Shown: piece after piece, positions 7,106 through 57,773 of the stretch | Numbering within the stretch: the stretch's first letter is position 1 | Layout of the letters: every line of letters begins with the position of its first letter | NCBI GenBank assembly: GCA_948543815.1 | Contig: CAOVHW010000001.1 | Location: 9,186-73,185 of the forward strand | Direction: 5' to 3' | DNA: 64,000 nt | Source of the DNA: an uncultured Eubacteriales bacterium | Lineage (GTDB): Bacteria > Bacillota > Clostridia > Lachnospirales > CAMVHY01 | Notes under the pieces: generated by a model | Told to the model about the DNA's origin: nothing | What the model saw: only the letters and a program-made list of their open reading frames with translations | The model's database searches: none | Translations under genes and position numbers: made by a program

Positions 7106-8167
7106 ATGCAGAAACTTGTGGAATTTTTTCGGCTTAGTGCCTATGGCACAATTATTTCTTTCATTATGTTAATTACTATTTTTATTACTAAAAATTATAT
7201 GCCGTACGAATTATTTTTACGTGAGGCACTTCCATTTTATAAAACTGATTTCAAATTTCTATTCACTACTAAAAATTATAATTTAACTAATGAAAATGAA
7301 AATGATTTTAATAATAACTGTGAAGTTTTTAATAAAATTGAACCATCTGATTTGATTAACGATATTGAATATAAAAAAGTTACTAAACCAATTTTCGATA
7401 GTGAGCAACTTTGTGATTTAACTTTCTTGAAAAGTAAATTTTATTCCGTTGATAAAAAAACTGATTTGACATTAAATGATTTTGACGTAAAAAAATTCTT
7501 AGCCGCCGATACTTCTATTAATAATTCTACCGATAAGGTTAAAATTTTAATTTTCCATACTCATTCTACTGAAATGTATAAAGATAGTGATAATAATAAT
7601 ATGTATGATGGAGTTGTCGGGCTCGGCGCTAAATTAGCTCAAATCTTAAATGATAAGTATAAAATTAAAACGCTACATCATACTAAAAGATATGATATCG
7701 TAAATTCGAAACCGGATAAACGTGGCGCATACGAACGTATGGAAACTGACGTTATCAAAATCATTAAGGCTAATCCATCTATTGAAGTCGCTATTGATAT
7801 CCATCGTGATGGCGTCGCTGAAAATATCCATCTCGTTGAAAATATAAATGGTAAACCTACCGCTAAAATTATGTTCGTCGATGGACTTTGTAAATTATTC
7901 CGTAATAATATTTTGACTCCAATAAATAATTTACCAAATCCATACCTAGATACGAATTTAGCTTTAAGTTTTAAAATGCAACTAAAATGTTACGAACTAT
8001 ATCCTAATCTCGCTCGTAAAATTTATATCAATGCCTACCGCTATAGTTTAAATATGTTGCCAAAATCTTTATTAGTTGAAGTTGGCGCTCAAACAAATAC
8101 TAAACAGGAAGCATTAAATGCCATCGAACCTTTAGCTGATGTATTAGCAAAAGTTTTATTGGAATAA
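7106..8167 (+). CDS. spoIIP: Stage II sporulation protein P (engulfment amidase/endopeptidase)
   Basis: It has an N-terminal TM anchor, an ILIFHTHSTEMY motif, a DIHRDG motif and LLVEVGAQTNT, all typical of SpoIIP. Confidence 0.85.
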   Translation: MQKLVEFFRLSAYGTIISFIMLITIFITKNYMPYELFLREALPFYKTDFKFLFTTKNYNLTNENENDFNNNCEVFNKIEPSDLINDIEYKKVTKPIFDSEQLCDLTFLKSKFYSVDKKTDLTLNDFDVKKFLAADTSINNSTDKVKILIFHTHSTEMYKDSDNNNMYDGVVGLGAKLAQILNDKYKIKTLHHTKRYDIVNSKPDKRGAYERMETDVIKIIKANPSIEVAIDIHRDGVAENIHLVENINGKPTAKIMFVDGLCKLFRNNILTPINNLPNPYLDTNLALSFKMQLKCYELYPNLARKIYINAYRYSLNMLPKSLLVEVGAQTNTKQEALNAIEPLADVLAKVLLE

Positions 8168-8196
8168 TAAAAAAATTCGCAGATGCGAATTTTTTT

Positions 8197-8868
8197 TTAA
8201 TAATTTTCTCGGTACTCATCCATATACTTTTTTAATAATTTTGCTGTAGTCGGTGGTGTGTATGAAATTGCATTCGCTCCAGCCTTAATCGTTTTCAATA
8301 TACTTTCATCCGTTTTTCCGCCCGTCGCTATTATCGGAATATCTTTAAATTTTTTACGTATCTGTCCAACAATTTTTGCTGTATTCTCACCGCCACTTAC
8401 ATTTAAAATATCTGCGCCGGCTTTTAATTTTTGTTCAATATCTACATTTTCTGACACAATCGTAATAATTACCGGAATATCCACAACACTTTTTACCTGC
8501 GAAATCGTTTGTAGTGACGTCGGTGCGTTTAAAACAACTGCTAGTGCACCTTGAAATTCTGCGTGCAATGCAACATTTTTTGACCGTAAACCTTCTGTAA
8601 TTCCTCCGCCAACTCCACAAAATACTGGCATATCTGCTATCGATATAATTGCTTGCGTAATTGTAGGATGCGGTGTAAATGGATAAACTGCAATAATTGC
8701 ATCGGCATCTGAATTTTTTATAATTGCTACATCGGTTGAAAATAAAATTGAATAAATAGTCTTTCCAATAATCGTTATGCCACTTGCTTTCTCTCGTATT
8801 ATCGCCGGCACTTTTACTAAATTTTTATGCAAATTAGTTGTATATTGCGGACTAGTTTTCTTGACCAT
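8197..8868 (-). CDS. Uncharacterised alpha/beta (TIM-barrel-like) protein
   Basis: 223 aa with an alternating beta-alpha pattern and Gly-rich phosphate-binding-like loops (VFCGVGGG, IIATGGK). The exact family is not recognised. Confidence 0.65.
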   Translation of the reverse strand: MVKKTSPQYTTNLHKNLVKVPAIIREKASGITIIGKTIYSILFSTDVAIIKNSDADAIIAVYPFTPHPTITQAIISIADMPVFCGVGGGITEGLRSKNVALHAEFQGALAVVLNAPTSLQTISQVKSVVDIPVIITIVSENVDIEQKLKAGADILNVSGGENTAKIVGQIRKKFKDIPIIATGGKTDESILKTIKAGANAISYTPPTTAKLLKKYMDEYRENY

Positions 8869-8897
8869 ATGTTCTCCTTCTATTTCAAAAATTTGTA

Positions 8898-8933
8898 TAA
8901 AAAAATGAACGGCAAACTATTTGCAGCGTTCAT
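8898..8933 (-). terminator. Terminator downstream of tRNA-Pro
   Basis: On the - strand, the stem atgaacg / cgttcat is followed by a T7 run. Confidence 0.6.
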
Positions 8934-8939
8934 ATTTAA

Positions 8940-9013
8940 TCGGAGAAACAGGATTTGAACCTGCGACCTCTTGGTCCCGAACCAAGCGCTCTACCAAGCT
9001 GAGCCATTCCCCG
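8940..9013 (-). tRNA. tRNA-Pro (anticodon CGG), CCA not encoded
   Basis: The reverse complement CGGGGAATGGCTCAGCTTGGTAGAGCGCTTGGTTCGGGACCAAGAGGTCGCAGGTTCAAATCCTGTTTCTCCGA folds as a cloverleaf. It has a 7-bp acceptor stem (one G-U), a GGTTCAAATCC T-arm, and an anticodon stem CTTGG/CCAAG with loop TTCGGGA. Confidence 0.95.
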
Positions 9014-9163
9014 TTTCCCTCACTTAATATACAATATTTAATTTATACTGTCAAGTTCATAGCTTTGCAAATAAAATTTATTTGTATTGAAAAATATCTT
9101 TGAATTTATCTTGTAATTATTTTATAATAAAATTATGAATTTTTATTTGTGAGGTGAAAAAAC

Positions 9164-24905: not shown

Positions 24906-25940
24906 TTAATGTTCTTGAGATCTTGGCATATTATTTAAATTAGGAATTGGAACAGGCTTTTGCGATTCAATAGCATTTAATTTGTCCAAAACTAACTTTT
25001 GTTTAAATTTCGGATAGCTATTAGCCAGATTTTTAAGGTATAAACGACAGGCTAAAATTTGGGCATCACTTAAATTATTAAACCGCTTAATATTTAATCC
25101 AAGAGATATTATATCAATTAACTCTCTAGTATCCATATCATTTATAATTGGCGGATTAAAAATATAGTCCAAATAAACTTTCTTATCATCTTCTGAATAA
25201 TTATTAGCCGGATCTTGTACATATGAAACACATTCTAAAAATTTGTCTTTGCTTAATTTAGCAAATGCACTCTTAGCAAAGAATATATCATAATCAATTA
25301 TTTCAAATAAAAGTTTAGGTTCCATAACATTAAAAACTTCTCGATTAATATTAATTAATTTAGGCACCATTATTAGCTTTTTTTCTGTTTCATTAGTTTG
25401 TACATATTTAATACAATCTAAAATTTTGTTTGCACTTAAAGCAGCTAACGTGGCTTCATTTAATAGACCACTTTCTACTATTTCAACTAAAGATTTAGCA
25501 TCTATATTATTTATAATTTGTGGATTAAGAGAGATTACTTTCTCTAAAAATTTTTTTCCTAAATTACTCCATTCCCCCGAATTTTGTATATAGGAAACGC
25601 ACTCTATAATTTTTTCGTTGCTTAATTCATTCAAGCTATCATTATTCAATAAGTCAAAATTAAGCAACATAATCAAATTGTCAGACGTTAGTCTATTTAT
25701 ACAACTCGGTTTACTATCGACTAAGTTGCTCAAGATAGTTATATCTCGTACCGGTCTCGCTCCCTTGTATCCTTGCGCAACTTCAAGGAGCTCTTGAAAT
25801 TTTTCATCATTTAAATCGACTAATGATTTAGTAGATAATGATTTATTATACAACATTTTATATAAACGTTTAGATTCCATATTATTTAAATCTTTAGACG
25901 CCGCATCATTATTTAATACAAAATTTCCATTTTCATTCAT
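24906..25940 (-). CDS. Locus B gene 4: soluble repeat protein (344 aa), 4-5 copies of a ~61 aa helical repeat; no TM hairpin
   Basis: Repeats start at LSNEKIIECVSYIQN, LSANKILDCIKYVQT, LSKDKFLECVSYVQD and LSDAQILACRLYLKN. The same repeat occurs in the 833 aa and ~1456 aa proteins. GGAGA RBS. Confidence 0.85.
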   Translation of the reverse strand: MNENGNFVLNNDAASKDLNNMESKRLYKMLYNKSLSTKSLVDLNDEKFQELLEVAQGYKGARPVRDITILSNLVDSKPSCINRLTSDNLIMLLNFDLLNNDSLNELSNEKIIECVSYIQNSGEWSNLGKKFLEKVISLNPQIINNIDAKSLVEIVESGLLNEATLAALSANKILDCIKYVQTNETEKKLIMVPKLININREVFNVMEPKLLFEIIDYDIFFAKSAFAKLSKDKFLECVSYVQDPANNYSEDDKKVYLDYIFNPPIINDMDTRELIDIISLGLNIKRFNNLSDAQILACRLYLKNLANSYPKFKQKLVLDKLNAIESQKPVPIPNLNNMPRSQEH

Positions 25941-25996
25941 AGTTAACCATCTCCTATTAATATAATTTATAATAAAGCATTTATACCAATAATTCT

Positions 25997-26025
25997 ATTA
26001 TATTACATGAAAATTAAAAAGTCAA
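25997..26025 (-). promoter_or_regulatory. Near-consensus sigma-A promoter of locus B gene 4 (TTGACT-17-TATAAT)
   Basis: The - strand reads TTGACTttttaattttcatgtaaTATAAT. The -10 plus downstream TATAATAGAATTAT box is shared with the other two locus B transcription units. Confidence 0.7.
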
Positions 26026-26149
26026 CCCATAAATCAAAAAAAATTTATATATAAAAAAATCCACTCATATAGATTTTTTTAACTGCAGCTTTTTCAAAAA
26101 GATAACACTCACAAAATAACTATAACATTTGGTAAAAAATAAGTTCAAA

Positions 26150-26180
26150 TAAAAAAAATTCCCTTTGCAATAAGGGAACT
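26150..26180 (-). terminator. Rho-independent terminator after the 833 aa gene
   Basis: On the - strand, gttccctt-attgca-aagggaa is followed by a T8 run. Confidence 0.75.
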
Positions 26181-26194
26181 TTTTTCGAAAAAAT

Positions 26195-28696
26195 TTATAT
26201 TACCTCTTGAATCATTTCATTATTTTGCATCGGTGGAATTCCATTTTGTTGATTATTTTCATGATTTTGAATTTGCATATTTTGTTGTTCTTGTACTTTT
26301 TGAACATCATTTAAATTTGGAACTAGATCATGATTTTCAACAATTACTCTATTTGATTTTTGTTTTTTATTTTTATGATTAAAAGCAAAAGTAGAAAAAC
26401 TAGCCAAACCAGTGATAGATAAACCTACTGCTACTCCCAATCCAATTCCAAAAGGTATAACGGATGCAACAAAAGTTAAAATCGCAATAGTAACTGCAGC
26501 TACTATCAAAGTAATACCTGTTATAGTAAAAGTCAAATTACAAGCTTTGTCAAAAGATTTCTCTTCATTTTGTTCAGAAATAGAAATATTTTCTTTAAAA
26601 GATTCAATTCGCATTTCTAAGGCTTCAGGATCGTTTCTAACTCCCCGCCTAATATTATCGAAAAAAGGTTTATATCTATTTCTTAATAAAATTTTTTTAC
26701 GAACACAAAAACCTTTTGCAATAAAACTAACTGCACTAGCCGCAAAGAAACTTACTAGTGAACTCAAACCAATAGCTAAAGGTATAAAAGGTACAGCAAA
26801 AGTTAAAACGGTAATAGCAATAGAAATTAATGTAAAAGCGGTACTCATTATAGTAAATGCTAAGTTATAAGATCTATTTAAAAAATTTTCTTTCAAAATT
26901 TCTAATATACATTTAGGAATTTTTTTCTTTTTTCTACTTGCATAATTTAAAAAAATATCATACCCATATTTTACATAATCCAAAAAGCTGTCACAGATAT
27001 CAGTTATCAATGAATAATTACTAAAATAATGATATTTTTCTTCCGCAGCTGACGCTAACAATAATTTAAAATATAACTTTGTCTTTTCTATATTTTGTGC
27101 ATCATCACCTATTTCACAACTTATAATAAAATCAAACATTTTTTTAAGCGTTAAATTTTCAAGATAATGTACTCTTGATAAAAAAACAAAAAACATTTTT
27201 TGCAAGATTTCAAAATTTGCACCTTTTTTCTCTATAAAAATATCAAGTAAATATTTAAACTCTTCTTCTTGATATAAATGATTAAGATTTTCATAGCTCA
27301 TATTCGGCAAATTTTCATAAATTATTTCTTTAGTAACATCATTTTTATTTTCAAATAAATACTCAAAAAATTCACTTCTCTCTGATGCTTTTTTCGCCAA
27401 GAGTTTTATATCACTTCTTTCAAAATTTATACAAATAAATTCAAAAAGAGGTCCCAACCAAACTCGATTATAACGATAATAATCTTCACCATGAATATAA
27501 TAACTTTTCTCATTAATAAAAGAAAAATCAATATAATCTTTATATATAATCATTTTTTCAAAAAATTTATGATTAAAAATATTCCGGCATGCGTCTAAAC
27601 TATGACGTTCAATATAAGCAAAAATTGAATGATTTTTTATTGAAAACAAATTAAAAAGCTCTTTTACAAAATCTCCTGGCAAATTATCATTATTTTTAAA
27701 ATACTCAATTAGCTCAATAGCTTTTCCGACATTAAACCAAGCAAAACATTTAATATCAATAAATTGATACCACTCAATAATTTTTCTACACGTTACCTTA
27801 TCTATAATCGATGGTCTAATAATTAATTTTTTAAAAGTTTCTTGTTTCACTTCTCCAGAATAATTATTATTCGGATTTTGTACGTATGCCATACAAGCTA
27901 AAATTTTTTCGTCATTTAACCACGACAGTTGCTCACTGCTAAAATAATTTATATAGTTAATTATTTTTTTTGGTTCCCATTGATTTAACTCATCCTTTGA
28001 AACATTAACAGAAGTCCGACCAGTTTCATATTTATAAGCTTTAACTTCATCCGGCCAATTTTCATAAATTTCTTCAAGGTCAGGAGATAAAATTAATTCT
28101 TCACCTACAACAATTTTATAAGCTGTCTTAAAATCAACTAAAATTACAGAGCCTAATTTTTCATCACCTAAACTCAAAAGTTGTTTTTGAGGCTTTAATA
28201 AATTACTCTGTGTAACGTGAAAATTTTCCACATTTTGTCTTGCTTCTTCGGAATATAAAAAATCATACAAATTCTTTATTATAGTTTTTATTTCTCCATA
28301 ATCGTTTTGATTAACAAAATCTTGACAAATAAATTTTATGGAAAAATCTAATATTTGCTCCGGATTTGATACTTTTTTATTTTTAGCAAGCAATGCAAAT
28401 TCAGTTTTTGCGAATTCTTCAGGCATTTTTTGAAAAATTTCTCTTAAATCTATAATTTTTATAATAATAGCTTTTCTGGCTTGAGGAAATAAATTTAAAC
28501 AATGTATCATACATGCAAAAAAAATACATTGAAAATAATGAACATGAAAAAAAGAATCGCTTAACATATCATTATTTACGATTATGTCTTTATATATTTC
28601 TGGTTGAAAATATCTTTTTTCTTTATTAATCTCGTCGAGAAACCAATATCTTATATCAGAAACATAAGCTTCTTTACCATCTTGCAGAGAGTTCAT
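26195..28696 (-). CDS. Locus B gene 3: paralogue of residues ~260-end of the giant protein, with two bilobed TM hairpins (833 aa as an ATG-initiated ORF)
   Basis: It aligns with the giant protein (DSFFHVHYFQCIFFACMIHCL vs DSFATIHYFQCIVTACIMHFL; DEKILACMAYVQNPNNNYS vs DKILQCIFYVLKPERNYT). There is no SD in front of ATG 28696. The frame stays open upstream to 28771, overlapping the end of the 239 aa ORF in the -1 frame. Confidence 0.8.
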   Translation of the reverse strand: MNSLQDGKEAYVSDIRYWFLDEINKEKRYFQPEIYKDIIVNNDMLSDSFFHVHYFQCIFFACMIHCLNLFPQARKAIIIKIIDLREIFQKMPEEFAKTEFALLAKNKKVSNPEQILDFSIKFICQDFVNQNDYGEIKTIIKNLYDFLYSEEARQNVENFHVTQSNLLKPQKQLLSLGDEKLGSVILVDFKTAYKIVVGEELILSPDLEEIYENWPDEVKAYKYETGRTSVNVSKDELNQWEPKKIINYINYFSSEQLSWLNDEKILACMAYVQNPNNNYSGEVKQETFKKLIIRPSIIDKVTCRKIIEWYQFIDIKCFAWFNVGKAIELIEYFKNNDNLPGDFVKELFNLFSIKNHSIFAYIERHSLDACRNIFNHKFFEKMIIYKDYIDFSFINEKSYYIHGEDYYRYNRVWLGPLFEFICINFERSDIKLLAKKASERSEFFEYLFENKNDVTKEIIYENLPNMSYENLNHLYQEEEFKYLLDIFIEKKGANFEILQKMFFVFLSRVHYLENLTLKKMFDFIISCEIGDDAQNIEKTKLYFKLLLASAAEEKYHYFSNYSLITDICDSFLDYVKYGYDIFLNYASRKKKKIPKCILEILKENFLNRSYNLAFTIMSTAFTLISIAITVLTFAVPFIPLAIGLSSLVSFFAASAVSFIAKGFCVRKKILLRNRYKPFFDNIRRGVRNDPEALEMRIESFKENISISEQNEEKSFDKACNLTFTITGITLIVAAVTIAILTFVASVIPFGIGLGVAVGLSITGLASFSTFAFNHKNKKQKSNRVIVENHDLVPNLNDVQKVQEQQNMQIQNHENNQQNGIPPMQNNEMIQEVI
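26381..26536 (-). other. Second bilobed hydrophobic hairpin of the 833 aa protein
   Basis: LTFTITGITLIVAAVTIAILTFVASVIPFGIGLGVAVGLSITGLASFSTFAF is followed by NHKNKKQK and a Q/N-rich tail. Confidence 0.7.
26720..26863 (-). other. First bilobed hydrophobic hairpin of the 833 aa protein
   Basis: LAFTIMSTAFTLISIAITVLTFAVPFIPLAIGLSSLVSFFAASAVSFI is followed by a basic patch (AKGFCVRKKILLRNRYK). Confidence 0.7.
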
Positions 28697-28740
28697 GGAA
28701 TCTTCTGAAAATTTTTTGGCAGCATTTACTATACATCTTT

Positions 28741-29454
28741 TTAAACTTTCTTTTTTATGTAAGGAAATTTTTCACTCAAAGCATTTAATATTTTGTCATC
28801 AATTTTAAGTTTAAATGTTTTATTTTCAATAAAAATAAATTCATTCAATAAATCCAAATTTAAAAAATCAATATCATTTTCTGTAATCGTTTCATTGCAT
28901 TGTGTTAAAAATGTCTGCGTATTCTTTGCAATATTTATTAATAAATCACCTTTAATTTTATTCAATAAAACTGGTAATCCTGCATTTAGCGGAAGATTAT
29001 AAAATTGATATTGCTTTTCATTTTCATAAAATTCAATTCCATCCCAAAACATTTTGAAAAGATTATTTTCTGAATTTCTATTAACACTATAATAATCACT
29101 ATCACCATAACCAACAGCATTTATATCAAATGTCTCACATTGTAAAAAATCCGTAGGTCTTATTTTTTTCCTGCCAATAACATTACCTAATTTATCAAGA
29201 AATTCTCTCAAAACACTTTTAGAAATTCCTGAAATTTCAGATACTTCATCAATTTGATTGCTAATATAAATATGGTAAATTTCTAACGCTCTATATGTTT
29301 GACATGTATTTAAAACTGAAACAAAAAGTCCAGTAGTTATTTGAACTACAGAAGTTACTGCAACTGTCAACATTGGCTTCCCCGAAGAGTCAATAATATA
29401 TTTTGATGTAATTGTCTCACGATTAATTATACTTTCATCTATATTTTCGTTCAC
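28741..29454 (-). CDS. Locus B gene 2: paralogue of the N-terminal ~250 aa of the giant protein (237-239 aa)
   Basis: Shared motifs are VSVLNTCQT vs VSNLNTCQT, LREFLDKLG vs LRECLEKLG, and MFWDGIEF vs NFWEFLNK. AGGAGG RBS. The GTG at 29454 has better spacing than the TTG at 29460. Confidence 0.8.
   Translation of the reverse strand: MNENIDESIINRETITSKYIIDSSGKPMLTVAVTSVVQITTGLFVSVLNTCQTYRALEIYHIYISNQIDEVSEISGISKSVLREFLDKLGNVIGRKKIRPTDFLQCETFDINAVGYGDSDYYSVNRNSENNLFKMFWDGIEFYENEKQYQFYNLPLNAGLPVLLNKIKGDLLINIAKNTQTFLTQCNETITENDIDFLNLDLLNEFIFIENKTFKLKIDDKILNALSEKFPYIKKKV
28750..28756 (-). other. A_AAA_AAG heptamer in the zero frame of the 239 aa ORF; candidate -1 frameshift or slippage site joining it to the 833 aa ORF
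   Basis: The - strand reads tac atA AAA AAG aaa gtt taa. The -1 frame reads ..AAA AAA gaa agt tta aaa aga ... tcc ATG aac, which is the 833 aa frame. Confidence 0.45.
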
Positions 29455-29534
29455 AATCAAATCCTCCTTTACAACGTAATCTATTGTATATAATTTTATT
29501 ATACTAAAAATTTCATTAAAATAAAAGAAATTTA

Positions 29535-32500
29535 TTACATTTCTTTTTGACTTAAACTATTTTCAGATTCCGGTCTATCTGTTTGTGCAAAATTTTTGAT
29601 ACGTTCTTTAATTGGTTTGCGCCAACCATATAAAACTTTTTCAGTTTTTGTATAAGTTTCTGGATCTCTTTTCATTAATTCATCATTTTTTCCTTTATCA
29701 AAAAATTTTGAAGCTAAACCAGTGCTTACTGCTCCAATAACAAATAATGCTACAGCTATACCTAATCCAATTCCAAAAGATAAAAAACCAAGTAAAGCTA
29801 AAGGCAATAGTGTAATTGAAGCTGAAACTGCAGCAATTCCTGAACTTATAAACGCTATATTACGTTTTTTGTGCAATGATTTTTCTTCTGTGTTTTCATT
29901 TTCCATTGCTACTGTTTCATTTTTACCTTCAATTTTTACATTGCTTTTATCTTCAGCTTTTCGCTTTTTCTCTTCTTCCTCATCTTTTGCTTCCATTTTT
30001 ACTTCTGATTTTACAGTTTTTTCAGTAACTTCAGATTTTTTCTTTGTTTCTATTTTTTCATCTAAATTTTTTAATAACAAATTAACATTATTTCCAAATT
30101 TTTCTATTAACGTTCTAATTTCTTCTTCTGATATAAACGACCTATATCTAACAAATAATGAATTTAATACGCTTTCTTGATTAGGCAACTTTAACAATAT
30201 TTCATTAAATCTTTTATCACTAACTGCTCGTATAACAGCACAGCTATTACTTTCAAAAGCATCTATTAAGATTTCATCAGATAAATCATCAACATATTTA
30301 TTAAAGTAGCTTATTATAATATTTAAATTATCAGGTTTAGAATTAACCAAATTTATAAAACTATCTTTACTAATCAAATTTTTTATATTTTCATTTTTAA
30401 ATTTGCATAATTTTAATAAATTATCATTATTAACTTTACTATTAATATAAGCAATCAAATTTGCTTTAAAGTTTTCATTTTGTAGCATATCAACTATTAA
30501 ATTTTCATATTCATTCAATATTTCTATAAAATCATCATCATTTGAAATATTATTAGGGAAAATAGACATAAGCTTATTTTTATAATTTTCATCTAAAATT
30601 GATAATTTCAACATTGCTTCTACTGGTAATTTTGTAAATTCTGAAGATATTACTTCATTTATTGCCTTAACAAAACTATTTTCACTTGAGTTGTCTTTTA
30701 CATATTCTATCGTTTTAAGTACATAATTACTATCCAGTAAAAAATTTTTTAATAAAGTTTTTGTTTTTGTTTTTTCTGCATCTTTGTCAAAATCAAAATA
30801 AAGTTTTGTTGCAAAAATTCTTGACTCAAAATCAAGATTATAAAAAGATTTGTTCTCAAATAATTTTTTTTCTATAAGAATTAAAAAAAATGATTTTATG
30901 TTCTCTGGCATATTATCAACTGAATAATTTTTTTGGCCAAATCTCATTAATAGTGAAAATTTACTGTCCTTTATCTTCGGAGCTATAACATTTAACAGCT
31001 CTTCATCTTTTACCATTAAATCTAACAAAATTTCATTGTTATTTATCTCATTTATAAAATCTGGACTATTTTTTAATATTTTCTGCAAAATTTTAATACC
31101 GTTATCATCTTTTTTACCATATACGAAATTCACTAAATCATTAAAGTGCATAAATTTTCCATCAATTAAATCAAAAAAATAATCAAACCTAGCATAAATT
31201 TGTTCTATTAGTACATAATTTATTGCTTGCGGTACAATTTTTAATATATATTTGGGCACCTTTGATACTTTCTCAGCAATATATTTTAAGAAATCAACAT
31301 TTTTTGCACTATTTTGGCATAAATCATTAAAATATAATTTTAAACGTTCTTGTTTTTCAAAATCATTCTCATTTATTTTGCAATATATTATAAGGTCAAA
31401 AATTTGTTTCGGTTGCATAGTTTTAAACAAATCTCTATTAAAATAAGCAGTAGCAAATACTTTTTTTAACCATTCGAATCCTATACTTTTTTTATCTAAA
31501 AAATAATTTATTAAGTCTGTAAATTTTCCTACGTTTAAATATTTTAATATTCTAGCTCCAATATAATTATAATTAGTTTCAATTTCTTCCGGCGTAAAAT
31601 ATAAAATGAATTCAGGATAATATCTTATTTTTTTCATTAAAATTGATTTTGCTAAACCAGTATCTTGATGAGTTTTATTTTCTCTTATAAACGTAATTAA
31701 TTCTCTAACTTTTTCATTCGGAAATTTTGAAATAGAACCTTCATCAACGTCTCTAAAAAACTCTAAAATATTTTTTATTTGAGCACAATTTAAAACTTTA
31801 TCACAATATAAATTCAAAAAAGGACCTCTTACTAAGCTTTGAACATTATCATTTTCTATATTACGACCAAGATAATTCAAAAAATTATTTAATAAAATAT
31901 CATTATCACCGCCACCAATCATTGATCTAAAACAATCATAACGACGCTCAAAAAATTTATCAAATTCTATAACATTCTGAAATTCTACTATTTTTGCAAA
32001 AAATTCTTCATCTCTTATAAAATTTTGCTTTACTGTATTATTATTTGTCAACAATTTAAAAACTTTTTCAGAAAGGCTAATTGGAACATTATTTCCATGT
32101 TTAATATAATTTACTAAATTAATAAGTTTATTATTATCTATATTGCAATGATTAATATCAATGTAGTCAAATAATTCAACAATTTGCTGCGCTGTTAAAG
32201 AATTAATTATATTAGAGTTAAGATTAACAAAAACTCTAAGCAAATCATTTTTTCTTTCAGCAGTATAATTTCTTTCTGGCTTTAGCACATAAAAAATACA
32301 TTGCAAAATTTTATCTGTTTTCAATGAATTTAATTGTGCAGATCTTAATAACGCAATATGCTCAACTAAATCTTCAACTGATACATTATTTATTTCTTGT
32401 CCTCTTAAACGATCTATTGTAACTTCATAATCAAATAATTCTGGATTAGAAGTATCAAAATTTGTGTAAGCATCCATAACTTCTTGTGATAAATTTAATT

Positions 32501-33905
32501 TTCTACCTGTAACAACTTCATATAATATTGGTAAAGGAACTTTTACTTCACCATTTTTCTCTATAAATAAATCTTTTGAATTTAAAAAAGTAAATTGCGT
32601 AGTATGATAATTAGTACCTGATACTACTTGTCGTGCTTCATTTGAAAATAGATCAGCATATATATTTGTTGTTGTATTTAATATTTTTTCTAAAACATTT
32701 TCTGAAATATCATCGCCACAAAATTTTTTTATAATAAACTTTACTTTTTCAGCAGGCGATAAAATTAAAGCATGTTCTGCAACTTTGAAATCATCTGAAG
32801 CTTTGAAATCATCTAATGTCATTTTTTCAAAATCACTTCTAACTTTTATAATTCTATCAATTATATTCTTTCTTGTATTAACATCTGCATCCACACTTAA
32901 AAAATGCATAATACACGCCGTGACAATACATTGAAAATAATGAATCGTAGCAAAAGAATCATTTAAAAGACCATTTTGGCTTATTTCTATTGGTTTATAA
33001 ATTTCTTCTGAAAAAAATTTATCTTTATTAAAACTATCTACAAGCGAACTAGATATCAAGTCTATATAATCTTCTATTTCTCTGCAATAATATACAAAAG
33101 CAGATACCGCGTCTTTCGTTTTATTGTTTTTAAGATGTTGCAAAATTTTTTGTGGACTAATTCGATGCGAAAGATTTTCACATAACTTATCATATATAAG
33201 TTGGCCTGTTTCATTTAATTCACCTTCCGCATCATAAATTGTAAATTCATCATCGTCATTTTTACTACCTTTACATTTTTCAATAAAAACATCTTGTTTT
33301 AAAAATTCAAAATCTGTAACTTCATAAGGTTTTTCACCTTTATTTAAAAATTCCCAAAAATTTTTTGCTAAATTTACTGTTTCTGGTTCATCCTTATCAT
33401 GTAATATGGTTTTTAAGCTATATCCTGCACTTTCACTAGAATTATCGCCCCAAATACTCATCTCATATCCAGTGTCATTAGTAAATAACCATAAAAAATT
33501 TATTTCATCGTCTCGAAGGACATCCACAAAATCTTTATCACCAAATCCATTATAATTCATGTATCTAACTGCACATTCTTTCCCCAATTTTTCTAAACAT
33601 TCTCTTAATAAAATCATCGGATTTTTTCTGTCTCTATTAAATTGACTTATGAAATAATTTAAATCGTTTTCTGAGATATCTGTTTGCCTTAAAGCATCAA
33701 TAATTCTATCTCTATTTACATTAAAAGAGTTAATACCTCTATCTTTCGCAGCATTTGTTTGGCATGTATTTAAATTTGAAACAGAATTATCATCATCTAT
33801 TGGTGTTACTGAAGTTAATGGTAAAAAATATAATGGAATTTCCCCATTTTTTCCACCTTTATAAATATCTTTATGACTAAAATGAAACTGCACTCCTCGA
33901 TTCAT
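29535..33905 (-). CDS. Locus B gene 1: giant (~1456 aa) helical-repeat protein with an acidic/lysine-rich spacer and a C-terminal bilobed TM hairpin
   Basis: The ORF is uninterrupted. The AAGGAG RBS is 8 nt from the ATG at 33905; the track's GTG at 33914 lies inside the RBS. There is no signal peptide. The hairpin is at nt 29709-29858. Confidence 0.9.
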   Translation of the reverse strand: MNRGVQFHFSHKDIYKGGKNGEIPLYFLPLTSVTPIDDDNSVSNLNTCQTNAAKDRGINSFNVNRDRIIDALRQTDISENDLNYFISQFNRDRKNPMILLRECLEKLGKECAVRYMNYNGFGDKDFVDVLRDDEINFLWLFTNDTGYEMSIWGDNSSESAGYSLKTILHDKDEPETVNLAKNFWEFLNKGEKPYEVTDFEFLKQDVFIEKCKGSKNDDDEFTIYDAEGELNETGQLIYDKLCENLSHRISPQKILQHLKNNKTKDAVSAFVYYCREIEDYIDLISSSLVDSFNKDKFFSEEIYKPIEISQNGLLNDSFATIHYFQCIVTACIMHFLSVDADVNTRKNIIDRIIKVRSDFEKMTLDDFKASDDFKVAEHALILSPAEKVKFIIKKFCGDDISENVLEKILNTTTNIYADLFSNEARQVVSGTNYHTTQFTFLNSKDLFIEKNGEVKVPLPILYEVVTGRKLNLSQEVMDAYTNFDTSNPELFDYEVTIDRLRGQEINNVSVEDLVEHIALLRSAQLNSLKTDKILQCIFYVLKPERNYTAERKNDLLRVFVNLNSNIINSLTAQQIVELFDYIDINHCNIDNNKLINLVNYIKHGNNVPISLSEKVFKLLTNNNTVKQNFIRDEEFFAKIVEFQNVIEFDKFFERRYDCFRSMIGGGDNDILLNNFLNYLGRNIENDNVQSLVRGPFLNLYCDKVLNCAQIKNILEFFRDVDEGSISKFPNEKVRELITFIRENKTHQDTGLAKSILMKKIRYYPEFILYFTPEEIETNYNYIGARILKYLNVGKFTDLINYFLDKKSIGFEWLKKVFATAYFNRDLFKTMQPKQIFDLIIYCKINENDFEKQERLKLYFNDLCQNSAKNVDFLKYIAEKVSKVPKYILKIVPQAINYVLIEQIYARFDYFFDLIDGKFMHFNDLVNFVYGKKDDNGIKILQKILKNSPDFINEINNNEILLDLMVKDEELLNVIAPKIKDSKFSLLMRFGQKNYSVDNMPENIKSFFLILIEKKLFENKSFYNLDFESRIFATKLYFDFDKDAEKTKTKTLLKNFLLDSNYVLKTIEYVKDNSSENSFVKAINEVISSEFTKLPVEAMLKLSILDENYKNKLMSIFPNNISNDDDFIEILNEYENLIVDMLQNENFKANLIAYINSKVNNDNLLKLCKFKNENIKNLISKDSFINLVNSKPDNLNIIISYFNKYVDDLSDEILIDAFESNSCAVIRAVSDKRFNEILLKLPNQESVLNSLFVRYRSFISEEEIRTLIEKFGNNVNLLLKNLDEKIETKKKSEVTEKTVKSEVKMEAKDEEEEKKRKAEDKSNVKIEGKNETVAMENENTEEKSLHKKRNIAFISSGIAAVSASITLLPLALLGFLSFGIGLGIAVALFVIGAVSTGLASKFFDKGKNDELMKRDPETYTKTEKVLYGWRKPIKERIKNFAQTDRPESENSLSQKEM
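29709..29858 (-). other. Bilobed hydrophobic hairpin of the giant protein
   Basis: IAFISSGIAAVSASITLLPLALLGFLSFGIGLGIAVALFVIGAVSTGLAS is preceded by an E/K-rich low-complexity block and followed by a 57 aa charged tail. Confidence 0.7.
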
Positions 33906-34011
33906 AAAAATCACTCCTTCGATTTTTATTTACTTCAATAATTTTATTATACATTATTTCAACGAAAAATTAAATCATAAATTAAAAAAATTTTTGTATG
34001 TAAAAAAGGTA

Positions 34012-34046: not shown

Positions 34047-34598
34047 TTAAACCGTCATAATTTCTTTATTTTTATCATCAGTTAATTGATCGATTTGCGC
34101 AATATATTTATCAGTAAGCTTTTGAATTTTATTTTCACAGCCTGCCAAATCATCTTCGGTAATTTCATTTTGCTTATGCAACTTTTTAAAATTGTCAATC
34201 GCATCACGACGAATATTTCTTACAGCAATTTTACAGTCTTCGCTTTTCTTTTTTACATCTTTTGTCAAAGATTTTCTACGTTCTTCAGTAAGCGGCGGCA
34301 ATGTTAAGCGTAAAACTTTTCCGTCATTCGTTGGATTTATTCCCAAATCTGAAGCCTGTATCGATTTCTCAATTAGCTTTAACATATTTAAATCCCACGG
34401 CTGAATAACAATCATACGCGCTTCAGGAATAGTTATATTTGCAACTTGATTAAGCGGCGAATCGGCGCCGTAATACTCAACAGTAATTTTGTCAAGCATA
34501 TGTGGATTGGCACGCCCGGCACGAATCGAATTCAATTCTTCCTTAAAATTTTGTATAGATTTTTGCATATTCGTCTCATAAACAGAGATATCAGGCAT
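34047..34598 (-). CDS. frr: Ribosome recycling factor
   Basis: The sequence MPDISVYETNMQKSIQNFKEELNSIRAGRANPHMLDKI... is typical of Frr. An AGGAGG RBS precedes the ATG at 34598; the track's 34706 start is an artefactual extension into pyrH. Confidence 0.95.
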   Translation of the reverse strand: MPDISVYETNMQKSIQNFKEELNSIRAGRANPHMLDKITVEYYGADSPLNQVANITIPEARMIVIQPWDLNMLKLIEKSIQASDLGINPTNDGKVLRLTLPPLTEERRKSLTKDVKKKSEDCKIAVRNIRRDAIDNFKKLHKQNEITEDDLAGCENKIQKLTDKYIAQIDQLTDDKNKEIMTV

Positions 34599-35319
34599 AA
34601 AATTCCTCCTCAATATTATTTGACACAAGCGTTCCAAACTCAAAAATTTTTTCATTATCCAAAACAGCAGTTTCAATACTATTTTTATGCTGCAACGCAA
34701 AAACAATGGATGGAATCGCGCGCGATAGATTCATCGCAGAAATATCGATTGCTGACAAATTATCTTGAATTATTTTTTGGTAAGAAATTTTTTTATATTT
34801 TTTAGCGGATGGATTTAATTTTGGATCGCTGTCATATATTCCATCAACATTTTTCGCATAAAGTATACAATCGGCTTCGAGTTCAGCCGCCCGCAACGCC
34901 GTTATGGTATCAGTCGAAAAAAATGGATGACCGATACCGCCACCAAAAATCAAAACATTTCCATTGTTCATATTTTTCAACGCTGATTCTTTAGAAAATT
35001 GTTTTGTCATCATCCCGACAATAAACGGTGTCATAATTTTATTTTTAATGTCGTGTTGATTGAACGCATCAGAAAGATACAACGCATTCATAACCGTTGC
35101 AAGCATTCCAATTTGGTCAGCTTTAACCTTGTCCATACGCGGATTGGCACTGCGGCCACGCCAAAAATTTCCGCCGCCGACAACAATTCCTATCTGAATT
35201 TGCTTTTGTAAAATATTTTTGAACTGCCTTGCCAAATCGGAAATAATTTCATCGTCAAATTTATTATTCACGCCGGCCAACGACTCGCCACTTAATTTTA
35301 TTATCACGCGCTTGTACAT
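34591..35319 (-). CDS. pyrH: UMP kinase
   Basis: It has KRVIIKLSGESL, VVGGGNFWRG and GHPFFSTDT motifs. 242 aa. Confidence 0.95.
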   Translation of the reverse strand: MYKRVIIKLSGESLAGVNNKFDDEIISDLARQFKNILQKQIQIGIVVGGGNFWRGRSANPRMDKVKADQIGMLATVMNALYLSDAFNQHDIKNKIMTPFIVGMMTKQFSKESALKNMNNGNVLIFGGGIGHPFFSTDTITALRAAELEADCILYAKNVDGIYDSDPKLNPSAKKYKKISYQKIIQDNLSAIDISAMNLSRAIPSIVFALQHKNSIETAVLDNEKIFEFGTLVSNNIEEEFYA

Positions 35320-40370: not shown

Positions 40371-40490
40371 TGACACGCCTCCTTTATTATGTAGTGACAA
40401 TTAAATTTATGCCAGATACATAATTTTTATGAGGCTTATATCTATAATTTTTGTATAATATCATAAAAATTTATAAGTATGAGGAACGAT

Positions 40491-41555
40491 ATGAAAAAAA
40501 TTATGGTAGCAATGAGTGGCGGCGTTGATAGTTCTGTAGCCGCATTAATTTTAAAAAATAATGGCGATGAAATTTGTGGCGCTACAATGAAATTATTTAG
40601 CAATGAAAATATTGGCGAGCATTCAAAAACTTGTTGTGCACTAAATGATGTATTCGACGCAAAAAATATTGCGGCGCGCTTGAATTTTAATCACTACGTA
40701 TTTAATTTTGGCGACGATTTTTTTCACTACGTCATCAAAAAATTTGCCAACGAATATATTAATGGCCGCACGCCAAATCCTTGTCTCGACTGTAATCGTT
40801 TTATAAAGTTCAAGAAATTTTTACAGCGCGCAAATCTTTTAGGCTACGATTATATTGCGACGGGACATTACGCGCAAATTTTTTACGATGAAAATTCAAA
40901 TCGATATGTATTAAAAAAATCGATGGACACTACGAAAGACCAAACTTATTTTTTATACGCAATGACACAAGATGAATTGGCAAAAACAATTTTCCCACTA
41001 GGAAATTTGTTGAAATCAGAAGTACGTGAAATTGCCGCAAAAAATAATTTGATAAATGCGCAAAAGCCCGACAGTCAAGATATTTGTTTCGTTAAAAATA
41101 AAAATTACAGTCAATTCTTACGTGAAAATTTTCAATTTGAAAACAAATCAGGAAATTTTGTTGACAAGCATGGAAAAATTCTTGGACGTCACAACGGCAG
41201 TATAAATTATACAATCGGCCAGCGCAAAGGTTTAGGAATAAGTTTCGGCAAACATATGTATGTTATTGCAAAAACTTGCGACACAATTGTCTTGGGCGAT
41301 GAAAACGATTTATACCAAAAAAAATTAATTGCGCACGATATAAATTTGATTGCGATTGAAAAATTAATCAAACCAATGAAAATCACTGCAAAAATTCGTT
41401 ATAATCAACCTGAAACGCCTGCAACTATCAAACCGCTAAATGAAAATGAAATCGAAGTTGAATTTGAAAATCCACAGCGCGCCATAACTCCCGGACAAGC
41501 CGTTGTATTTTACGACGGTGATAATGTTCTCGGAGGCGGAATAATTAAAGAATGA
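40491..41555 (+). CDS. mnmA: tRNA-specific 2-thiouridylase MnmA
   Basis: It has the MKKIMVAMSGGVDSSV PP-loop, the catalytic Cys motifs (NPCLDCN, DSQDICF), and is ~355 aa long. Confidence 0.93.
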   Translation: MKKIMVAMSGGVDSSVAALILKNNGDEICGATMKLFSNENIGEHSKTCCALNDVFDAKNIAARLNFNHYVFNFGDDFFHYVIKKFANEYINGRTPNPCLDCNRFIKFKKFLQRANLLGYDYIATGHYAQIFYDENSNRYVLKKSMDTTKDQTYFLYAMTQDELAKTIFPLGNLLKSEVREIAAKNNLINAQKPDSQDICFVKNKNYSQFLRENFQFENKSGNFVDKHGKILGRHNGSINYTIGQRKGLGISFGKHMYVIAKTCDTIVLGDENDLYQKKLIAHDINLIAIEKLIKPMKITAKIRYNQPETPATIKPLNENEIEVEFENPQRAITPGQAVVFYDGDNVLGGGIIKE

Positions 41556-56285: not shown

Positions 56286-56297
56286 GAGGTGGAAAAA

Positions 56298-57773
56298 ATG
56301 TATCTGGCTCTCTACCGAAAATATCGGCCAAAAAAATTTGCGGATGTCGTCGGCCAAAAACATATCGTAAAAACTTTACTTAATCAAATTACTGCTAATC
56401 GTATCTCTCACGCTTATTTATTTTGTGGGACACATGGCACTGGTAAAACTTCTATTGCAAAAATTTTCGCAATGGCGGTAAATTGTTTTGACAATAAAAA
56501 TGGTGAACCATGTATGAAATGTGAAAGCTGTAAAAATGTTTTGAGTAAACAAGACCCGAACATAATTGAAATTGATGCCGCAAGTAATAATGGCGTCGAC
56601 AATATCCGTGATATTCGCGACGAAGTGAAATATCCACCAATTAACGGTAAGTACAAAATTTATATCATCGACGAAGTTCATATGCTATCAGTTGGCGCGT
56701 TCAATGCGTTATTGAAAACTTTGGAGGAACCGCCATCACACGTAATTTTTATATTGGCGACAACGGATCCACAAAAAATTCCCGCCACAATTCATTCACG
56801 AACGCAACGATTTGATTTCAAACGAATTTTACCGCAAGAAATGTTTGACGCAATAAAAAAATATATGGCGGCCGAAAAAATTAATATAAGTGATGAGGCA
56901 ATAAATTATGTAATACGATTGTCGGACGGCGCGATGCGTGACGCATTGAGCATTTTGGATCAGTGTATATCATTTTACTTCGGCGAGGAAATTTCGCTGT
57001 CAAAAGTTATAAACATTACCGGTAATATTGACGATAAAAATTGCTGTGAATTCCTAAATGCATTGAATGAAAAAAATGTAAAAAAAATTTTGGATATGAC
57101 AAACAAAATTGTTATGGATGGCAAAGAAATTTCACATTTCCTCTCTGCTTTAATTATATTTTTACGCGATTGTCTTGTGTTCAAAAATATTGGTGATGAC
57201 GAAAATGTTTTACAATTATGGAATGACCGTGCACAAATTTTACAAAATTGTCAACTTTCTTCACCAAATCAAATAAAATTGCTGGAAGTTTTCTCACAAT
57301 TACAAAATGAACTAAAATATGCTATCAATCCACGAATTTCATTTGAAATTTCGTGCATAAAATTTTGCTCTGATGATGAAAAAAAAAATACTAACCAAAC
57401 CAATGACGAAATAAAAATTTCAAAAAAAATTGACACGCCTGTAAAAAAAATAATACCAACTGACGTAAAAGAATTGATAAAAAAATGGCCGCAGATTGTC
57501 GCAAAATCTTCCGGCCTCTTAAAAGAAATTTTGAATTTGTCGTACATCGGCTCGCTCAAAAATAATGTCGTCTATATAATTACAAATGATGCCGGTAGTA
57601 ATGCAATATTAAAACAAAAAAAAGATGAAATTAAAAATTTAATTGATTTAGATTGCGAAATAGATTTCATTTGTAAAGATGATTACGAAGCCGAACATAA
57701 AAAAATTTTCAATCAAGACGATGAAGAACTAAAAAAACAACTCAAAAAAATTAATTTCCCTATTGAAAGCTAA
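56298..57773 (+). CDS. dnaX: DNA polymerase III subunit gamma/tau
   Basis: It has LYRKYRPKKFADVVGQ, the Walker A GTHGTGKTS, a Zn module CxxCxxC, and IDEVHML. The ATG at 56298 follows a GAGGTGG RBS; the track's GTG at 56289 lies in the RBS. Confidence 0.93.
   Translation: MYLALYRKYRPKKFADVVGQKHIVKTLLNQITANRISHAYLFCGTHGTGKTSIAKIFAMAVNCFDNKNGEPCMKCESCKNVLSKQDPNIIEIDAASNNGVDNIRDIRDEVKYPPINGKYKIYIIDEVHMLSVGAFNALLKTLEEPPSHVIFILATTDPQKIPATIHSRTQRFDFKRILPQEMFDAIKKYMAAEKINISDEAINYVIRLSDGAMRDALSILDQCISFYFGEEISLSKVINITGNIDDKNCCEFLNALNEKNVKKILDMTNKIVMDGKEISHFLSALIIFLRDCLVFKNIGDDENVLQLWNDRAQILQNCQLSSPNQIKLLEVFSQLQNELKYAINPRISFEISCIKFCSDDEKKNTNQTNDEIKISKKIDTPVKKIIPTDVKELIKKWPQIVAKSSGLLKEILNLSYIGSLKNNVVYIITNDAGSNAILKQKKDEIKNLIDLDCEIDFICKDDYEAEHKKIFNQDDEELKKQLKKINFPIES

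Follow-up and report, generated by a model that had tools for sequence, protein, structure and literature searches.

The window (the whole 64,000-nt stretch of DNA analyzed here) contains, in the slot between frr and prs, two minus-strand ORFs of 239 and 833 codons whose reading frames change at A_AAA_AAG, a canonical -1 slippery heptamer. The locus raises the question of whether ribosomes are programmed to shift frame at this site and join the two ORFs into one giant protein, as a first-pass annotation had proposed, or whether the heptamer marks a gene broken by mutation.

The two ORFs and their junction

The N-terminal gene fragment (28741..29460, minus strand) encodes 239 aa when read from TTG 29460. 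By the spacing of the Shine-Dalgarno (SD) sequence AAGGAGG (29463..29469, minus strand), its most likely start is GTG 29454, which lies 8 nt past that sequence; independent gene calls on the clone also give the resulting 237 aa. This fragment matches residues 20-256 of the intact protein P0002, which is described below. The C-terminal gene fragment (26195..28750, minus strand) lies in the -1 frame and consists of 18 bridging codons (ESLKRCIVNAAKKFSEDS) followed by the 833-aa ORF from ATG 28696. It is predicted to form membrane helices in two pairs, has a tail rich in Q and N, and is colinear with P0002 and with a second intact protein, P0003. The annotation had remarked that ATG 28696 lacks an SD while other genes have strong ones, and our check bore this out: no SD was found in the sequence upstream of ATG 28696 (cagaagattcc), whereas SDs of the GGAG/GAGG type precede the paralogue, the N-terminal ORF, the 344-aa ORF, prs, pyrH, and gyrA. 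A promoter scan returned 56 sites against 63.9 in shuffled sequences, a result that says nothing on an internal promoter for the 833-aa ORF.

The minus-strand sequence across the junction is ...gaa aaa ttt cct tac atA AAA AAG aaa gtt taa. The heptamer (28756..28750, minus strand), the position of which we rechecked in the sequence, supplies AAA and AAG as 0-frame codons of the N-terminal ORF, and atA AAA AAG thus has the X_XXY_YYZ arrangement of a dnaX- or IS3-type site in the 0 frame. From there, the 0 frame reads ATA AAA AAG AAA GTT TAA, and the TAA (28743..28741, minus strand) terminates the N-terminal ORF. The 833-aa ORF was correctly placed by the annotation in the -1 frame, open from 28771 to its ATG at 28696; this frame continues past the heptamer and via that ATG down to 26195, and its upstream limit, read from the sequence, is a TGA at 28774..28772 (minus strand). 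A -1 shift within the resulting 31-nt rescue window (28771..28741) can join both ORFs, and inspection of these 31 nt revealed no further in-frame heptamer.

The conceptual product of a -1 slip at the heptamer is ...YIKK-ESLKRCIVNAAKKFSEDS-MNSLQDGKEAYV..., with a length of 1088 aa from TTG 29460 or, by arithmetic, 1086 aa from GTG 29454. Upstream lies the intact giant paralogue (29535..33914, minus strand), 1459 aa long when read from a GTG; the gene call starts at an ATG and gives 1456 aa. The 1088-aa fusion aligned with the 1459-aa paralogue in a single BLASTP HSP that crosses the junction (residues 29-858 versus 27-896; 26% identity; E 8e-54), in agreement with the colinear fusion of ~1090 aa that had been predicted from the first inspection. 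The bridge peptide falls opposite the paralogue's ISPQKILQHLKNNKTKDAVSAFV, again as predicted. This colinearity exceeds chance as judged from the alignment, and the continuation in the -1 frame is meaningful in that it is open across the site and makes the fusion colinear with the orthologues as well as the paralogue.

Intact orthologues and a one-base gap

A search of a 5.8-billion-cluster protein collection with the fused protein as the query yielded three clusters, namely the 833-aa fragment itself, P0002, and P0003. P0002 has 1105 aa and shares 76% identity with the query at 100% coverage; P0003 has 1087 aa and shares 66%, also at full coverage. Each is encoded by a single uninterrupted ORF, and both genes lie in the slot seen in the window, gyrA-pyrH-frr-[giant genes]-prs-antiporter. 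P0002 carries DIKKESLKRYIV at the junction, identical to what a -1 slip would yield in the window; the slip would restore the orthologue peptide IKKESLKR exactly. From these comparisons, the predicted 239-aa and 833-aa ORFs are shown to be pieces of one ancestral gene of the giant family. An AlphaFold2 model of P0002 built from a three-sequence alignment was poor (mean pLDDT 41.7; pTM 0.28).

In the DNA alignment, the window (ACATAAA-AAAGAAAG) differs from its closest intact relative, L001 (ACATAAAGAAAGAAAG), by exactly one 1-nt gap, which lies inside the heptamer: L001 reads ACAT AAAG AAAG AAAG TTTAAAAAG and the window ACAT AAA-AAAG AAAG TTTAAAAAG. The intact codons of L001 are ATA AAG AAA GAA AGT. 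L001 carries AAAGAAAGAAAG at the site and thus has no heptamer; L003 carries ATTAATAAAAATAGG, and the heptamer is absent from the P0002 and P0003 genes. Since the two orthologues and the paralogue are all uninterrupted, the intact state appears to be ancestral, and we infer that the direction of change was a deletion in the window lineage. The lost base may have been the G; with an ancestral AAA in place of the AAG of L001, it could instead have been one A from an A7 run. As the single base missing relative to the nearest orthologue, it accounts for the frame break. Among the alternatives that the annotation had listed beside frameshifting, a fixed 1-nt indel therefore fits this gap best.

The lesion proved to be real and clonal. 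The eight contigs retrieved, which come from eight sequencing runs in three separate accession series (SRR72278xx, SRR343430xx, and SRR105938xx), share identical junction DNA, and the same split was found in the Logan assemblies of SRR7227843/45/75/83. The exact 833-aa protein was encoded on 15 contigs, including those of SRR34343000/1 and SRR10593849/50, and NCBI and ENA were also given as its sources. Loci L005-L008 were 99.99% identical to the window, with 1-2 mismatches in up to 16 kb, and L024-L027 were 100% identical to it over 6-8.5 kb. All carriers thus belong to one clone with no divergence among them, and conservation of the frameshift cannot be judged from the carriers. The window and the SRR72278xx sub-clone differ at just two positions: C26475T replaces a Thr with Ile within a membrane helix encoded by the 833-aa ORF, and T35012C falls in the pyrH region. 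The comparison of tract lengths among related sequences that the annotation had suggested gave, at the assembly level, A6 in all eight retrieved assemblies of the clone and a tract interrupted by G in L001. No in-frame version of the window allele was found in the 5.8-billion-cluster protein search. Scans with the orthologue alignment and with a 32-nt junction pattern gave no matches among genome and metagenome contigs, and hence no closer relatives by which to date the deletion; a literature search with the SRA accessions returned no papers.

An age estimate was available from the downstream frame itself. Over 2553 nt (851 codons), this frame contains no second lesion and no secondary stops, while ~5.8% of single substitutions in it would make a stop. 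Under neutrality, the lack of such stops places the deletion at less than about 2% divergence, and the probability of seeing none is ~0.09 if the sequence has been neutral and the timing is uniform since the split from L001 (dS ~0.15). Either the deletion would be recent (less than about 2% divergence), or the downstream frame would still be under selection.

The surroundings of the gene are unstable. The giant-protein family had 12 representatives at E <=1e-3 among 1.84 billion proteins, and in searches of Pfam, NCBIfam, and PADLOC, all matches to the giant proteins or to the 344-aa ORF were sub-threshold. Conserved family motifs include LNTCQT and HYFQC, and the C-terminus carries paired membrane helices and a Q/N-rich tail. 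As judged from five loci (24906-33914 of the window, minus strand, and L001, L003, L009, and L022), the frr-prs slot is a hypervariable island of predicted orphan giant proteins. The 344-aa orphan ORF (24906..25940, minus strand) belongs to the same island and is present in L001 but absent from L003 and L022. The slot in L003 holds giant genes of 1529 and 1087 aa. In L022 (598-2260), the orthologue is cut to pieces of 216, 212, and 104 aa in three frames, with ~500 residues deleted. L009, a metagenome-assembled genome of an uncultured Clostridia (CANEHT01) with a GyrA that is 99% identical, has one divergent giant gene at 7140-10738, 31% identical to the window's 1459-aa paralogue. At CTGAAAAGT (junction about 9640-9680), this gene breaks into two parts (845|358 aa), the second in the -1 frame; the break has no canonical slippery heptamer and resembles the loss of one nucleotide from an A-run. 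At the border of the island, the ORF listed as frr (34047-34706, minus strand; 219 aa from a TTG) overlaps pyrH, and its real start is the ATG behind GAGGAGG, for a product of 183 aa that matches the gene calls on related contigs.

The dN/dS ratio was 0.73-0.83 for all pairs, including intact versus intact, and does not separate the hypotheses, nor did lineage-specific change counts discriminate between them. The excess change in the window lineage was confined to a mosaic patch in alignment columns 600-750: at fused residues about 560-720 (within 26195-28696, minus strand), 150 columns contain 47 changes specific to the window, at which L001 and L003 agree with each other. This pattern suggests that the patch is a mosaic made by recombination and not a product of uniform divergence. 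The comparisons thus describe what is, to all appearance, a fast-evolving dispensable gene repeatedly damaged at different places, unlike a gene with a conserved recoding site.

The heptamer and the rival explanations

The annotation had seen no convincing stem-loop downstream of the heptamer and no internal SD upstream, and our calculations agree. The 100 nt downstream folded at -14.5 kcal/mol (z = -0.30 versus shuffles), with no stimulatory structure, and the first 60 nt, at -1 kcal/mol (z = +1.78), folded worse than the shuffles. No SD-like element was found 10-14 nt upstream of the heptamer, where the sequence is AAATTTCC; the sole purine cluster in the upstream sequence (GAAAAATTTCCTTACAT) is GAGTGA, ~18 nt away, a poor match to GGAGG.

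The motif itself is common here. We counted 7 in-frame copies of A_AAA_AAG (3.5 expected), one of them in frr, and 52 of A_AAA_AAA (35.9 expected) across the window's 17,912 codons; A_AAA_AAG is therefore not avoided in ordinary genes. We also removed, in simulation, each nucleotide of the intact orthologues in turn and counted the heptamers within the rescue window. An in-frame X_XXY_YYZ lay in the rescue window in 31-38% of cases, A_AAA_AAR in 11-12%, and A_AAA_AAG in 1.1-3.7%. Contraction of homopolymer runs is the usual mechanism of deletion mutation, and when deletions were confined to runs of >=5-7 nt, the proportions were 27-85% for any in-frame heptamer and 13-46% for A_AAA_AAN. The presence of the heptamer is itself no more than chance. 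Because deletions in Lys-rich runs readily create heptamers, one found at a frame break carries little evidential weight in AT-rich genomes. In E. coli, heptamers without stimulators shift at only 2-10 times a background of 0.055% (PMC4066793), which makes the expected efficiency low.

The sequence facts given by the first-pass annotation were all correct; its central claim, that the heptamer bridges the ORFs into one protein, is divided by these results. Its idea of one gene whose frame and peptide (IKKESLKR) would be restored by a -1 slip stands; its idea of a programmed, dnaX-like signal does not, the orthologues being uninterrupted and free of the heptamer, stimulators being missing, and the layout being limited to one clone. 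Of the features of dnaX- and IS3-type sites, we found neither a downstream stem-loop or pseudoknot, nor an upstream SD, nor a conserved heptamer with a conserved two-frame layout. Three marks of a frameshift-disrupted gene were present: intact colinear orthologues, an indel at the frame change, and a lesion repeated across runs.

We consider it probable that a recent clonal 1-nt deletion made the heptamer as a by-product, and that any leakiness of the site is incidental rather than the work of an evolved programmed frameshift. The ancestral locus would have been one gene for a lineage-restricted, membrane-anchored giant protein of ~1090 aa. A 1-nt deletion in a Lys-rich purine stretch, in this clonal lineage only, would have cut translation after 237-239 aa; the 851 codons beyond would now lie in the -1 frame, preceded by an internal Met that lacks a ribosome-binding site, and A_AAA_AAG would have arisen from the A-rich sequence in which the base was lost. 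Because this heptamer is intrinsically shift-prone, the mutation may be leaky, with a small fraction of ribosomes slipping -1 to give a full-length protein identical to the ancestral one. We infer that slip efficiency is low and that function is reduced or lost.

The strongest competitor, which we regard as possible though unlikely, is that compensatory -1 slippage makes the locus a 'pseudo-pseudogene', supplying useful full-length protein or acting as an attenuator that also gives a 27-kDa N-terminal product. A_AAA_AAG is the most efficient bacterial -1 motif, and here it is perfect, lies in the correct frame, and would restore the orthologue's peptide unchanged; these facts, like the lesion-free 851 codons downstream with their probability of ~0.09, speak for compensatory slippage and against the reading that we favor. 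The frameshifted clone, present in at least eight runs from three series, is also not obviously unfit. As for decoding, s2U34 modification of tRNA-Lys(UUU) makes AAG decoding shift-prone in E. coli. AAG is the rare Lys codon (9%) in the genes of this window, and mnmA, which encodes a tRNA 2-thiouridylase, is present (40479-41555, plus strand); both are compatible with an E. coli-like shift-prone tRNA-Lys. A tRNA scan of the window and eight loci did not find tRNA-Lys, and an Rfam search returned tRNA-Pro only. Leaky 1-bp deletions have been published (PMC5009743, PMC1851650, PMC10861913): non-programmed suppression of such deletions in E. coli can reach 1-10% (PMC10861913), and with over-expression, rescue of deletions by C_AAA_AAA amounted to 25-60% (PMC1851650), two precedents that count against the favored reading. 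Against compensatory slippage stand the missing stimulators, the restriction of the layout to a single clone, the intact orthologues without the heptamer, the frequency of the heptamer in ordinary genes and its likely origin as a by-product of deletions, and the decay of the gene in sister lineages. It is plausible that some full-length protein is made by slippage. A related possibility, which we consider quite unlikely, is that a recoding site is being born here: the deletion would break the frame and leave an optimal heptamer, the cell would obtain reduced full-length protein plus a free N-terminal domain, and this compensation would sustain a widespread clone.

It is improbable that the two ORFs form a functional split gene, in which a 237-aa N-terminal domain and an 833-aa membrane-anchored part would be made by termination-reinitiation at ATG 28696, 44 nt past the stop. 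The ATG does follow closely behind the stop, its Met is also a Met in P0002, and the break falls in the least conserved segment of the alignment (columns 250-300), where L003 has 30 lineage-specific changes and indels. However, the missing SD sets ATG 28696 apart from every neighboring gene checked, the Met is an ordinary internal residue that is not conserved in P0003, and no other family member has a two-gene layout at this position.

We judge it very improbable that phase variation or transcriptional slippage at the A6 tract toggles the gene ON and OFF. The protein has the look of a variable protein of the surface or membrane, and its gene lies in a hypervariable island; a second family member (that of L009) is also split at an A-run; yet the uniform A6 tracts and the failure to recover an in-frame allele argue against it, so that slippage-based phase variation, another alternative raised in the annotation, found no support. 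An A6 tract is also shorter than typical contingency tracts. For transcriptional slippage, it falls short of the ~9 A/T runs cited for bacteria (PMC5009743). A sequencing or assembly error, suggested by the position of the break in a homopolymer, is effectively excluded because the junction is identical in all eight contigs, from eight runs in three series, because NCBI and ENA are also sources of the exact 833-aa protein, and because the other genes of the window are full length, with full-length domain matches.

As matters stand, the main consequence is for annotation: the 237/239-aa ORF and the 833-aa ORF belong together as a single frameshifted gene, neither two proteins nor a recoding event. 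The locus also carries a caution, since a canonical heptamer at a frame break is weak evidence alone in an AT-rich genome. Were the slip to prove efficient, it would provide a natural case, from a Gram-positive anaerobe, of ribosomal slippage that makes up for an indel, and would illustrate one route by which programmed frameshifts arise. The giant proteins themselves form an orphan family that has hardly been sampled and whose genes lie in a hypervariable island.

Comparison with known systems

The dnaX gene of E. coli has the identical heptamer in the same codon phase with the same direction of shift. It also has an upstream internal SD, a downstream stem-loop, conservation, and a truncated second product (gamma); in contrast, the site in the window has no stimulators and no conservation, and a shift there would repair a disrupted gene. 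The organism's own dnaX, which lies in the window (56289..57773, plus strand; 494 aa) and has clamp-loader domains, contains no in-frame A_AAA_AAG, and the E. coli-type dnaX frameshift is therefore not used here.

Compensatory frameshifting is recognized as a class in the review by Atkins et al. (PMC5009743). In leaky mutants, in the G-run of HSV thymidine kinase, and at C_AAA_AAA in pDEST17, the same kind of deletion lies beside a shift-prone run and slippage regenerates the protein. Those cases were shown by protein analysis; at the locus in the window, slippage and any benefit from it are predicted. Interrupted pilus genes of Bifidobacterium breve have been proposed as 'pseudo-pseudogenes' (PMC5009743). 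They resemble the present locus in being large surface-associated genes one frameshift from a full product; they differ in family and organism, and the interruption described here is not shared by relatives.

Most of the 'fs-genes' in the GeneTack survey were ordinary frameshift pseudogenes (PMC3711429). The locus in the window differs from such pseudogenes in its young lesion, in its 851 stop-free codons, and in the coincidence of the break with the best slippery motif. It resembles them in having a strain-specific indel relative to intact orthologues, in lying within a fast-evolving dispensable gene, and in the other lesions found in its sisters.
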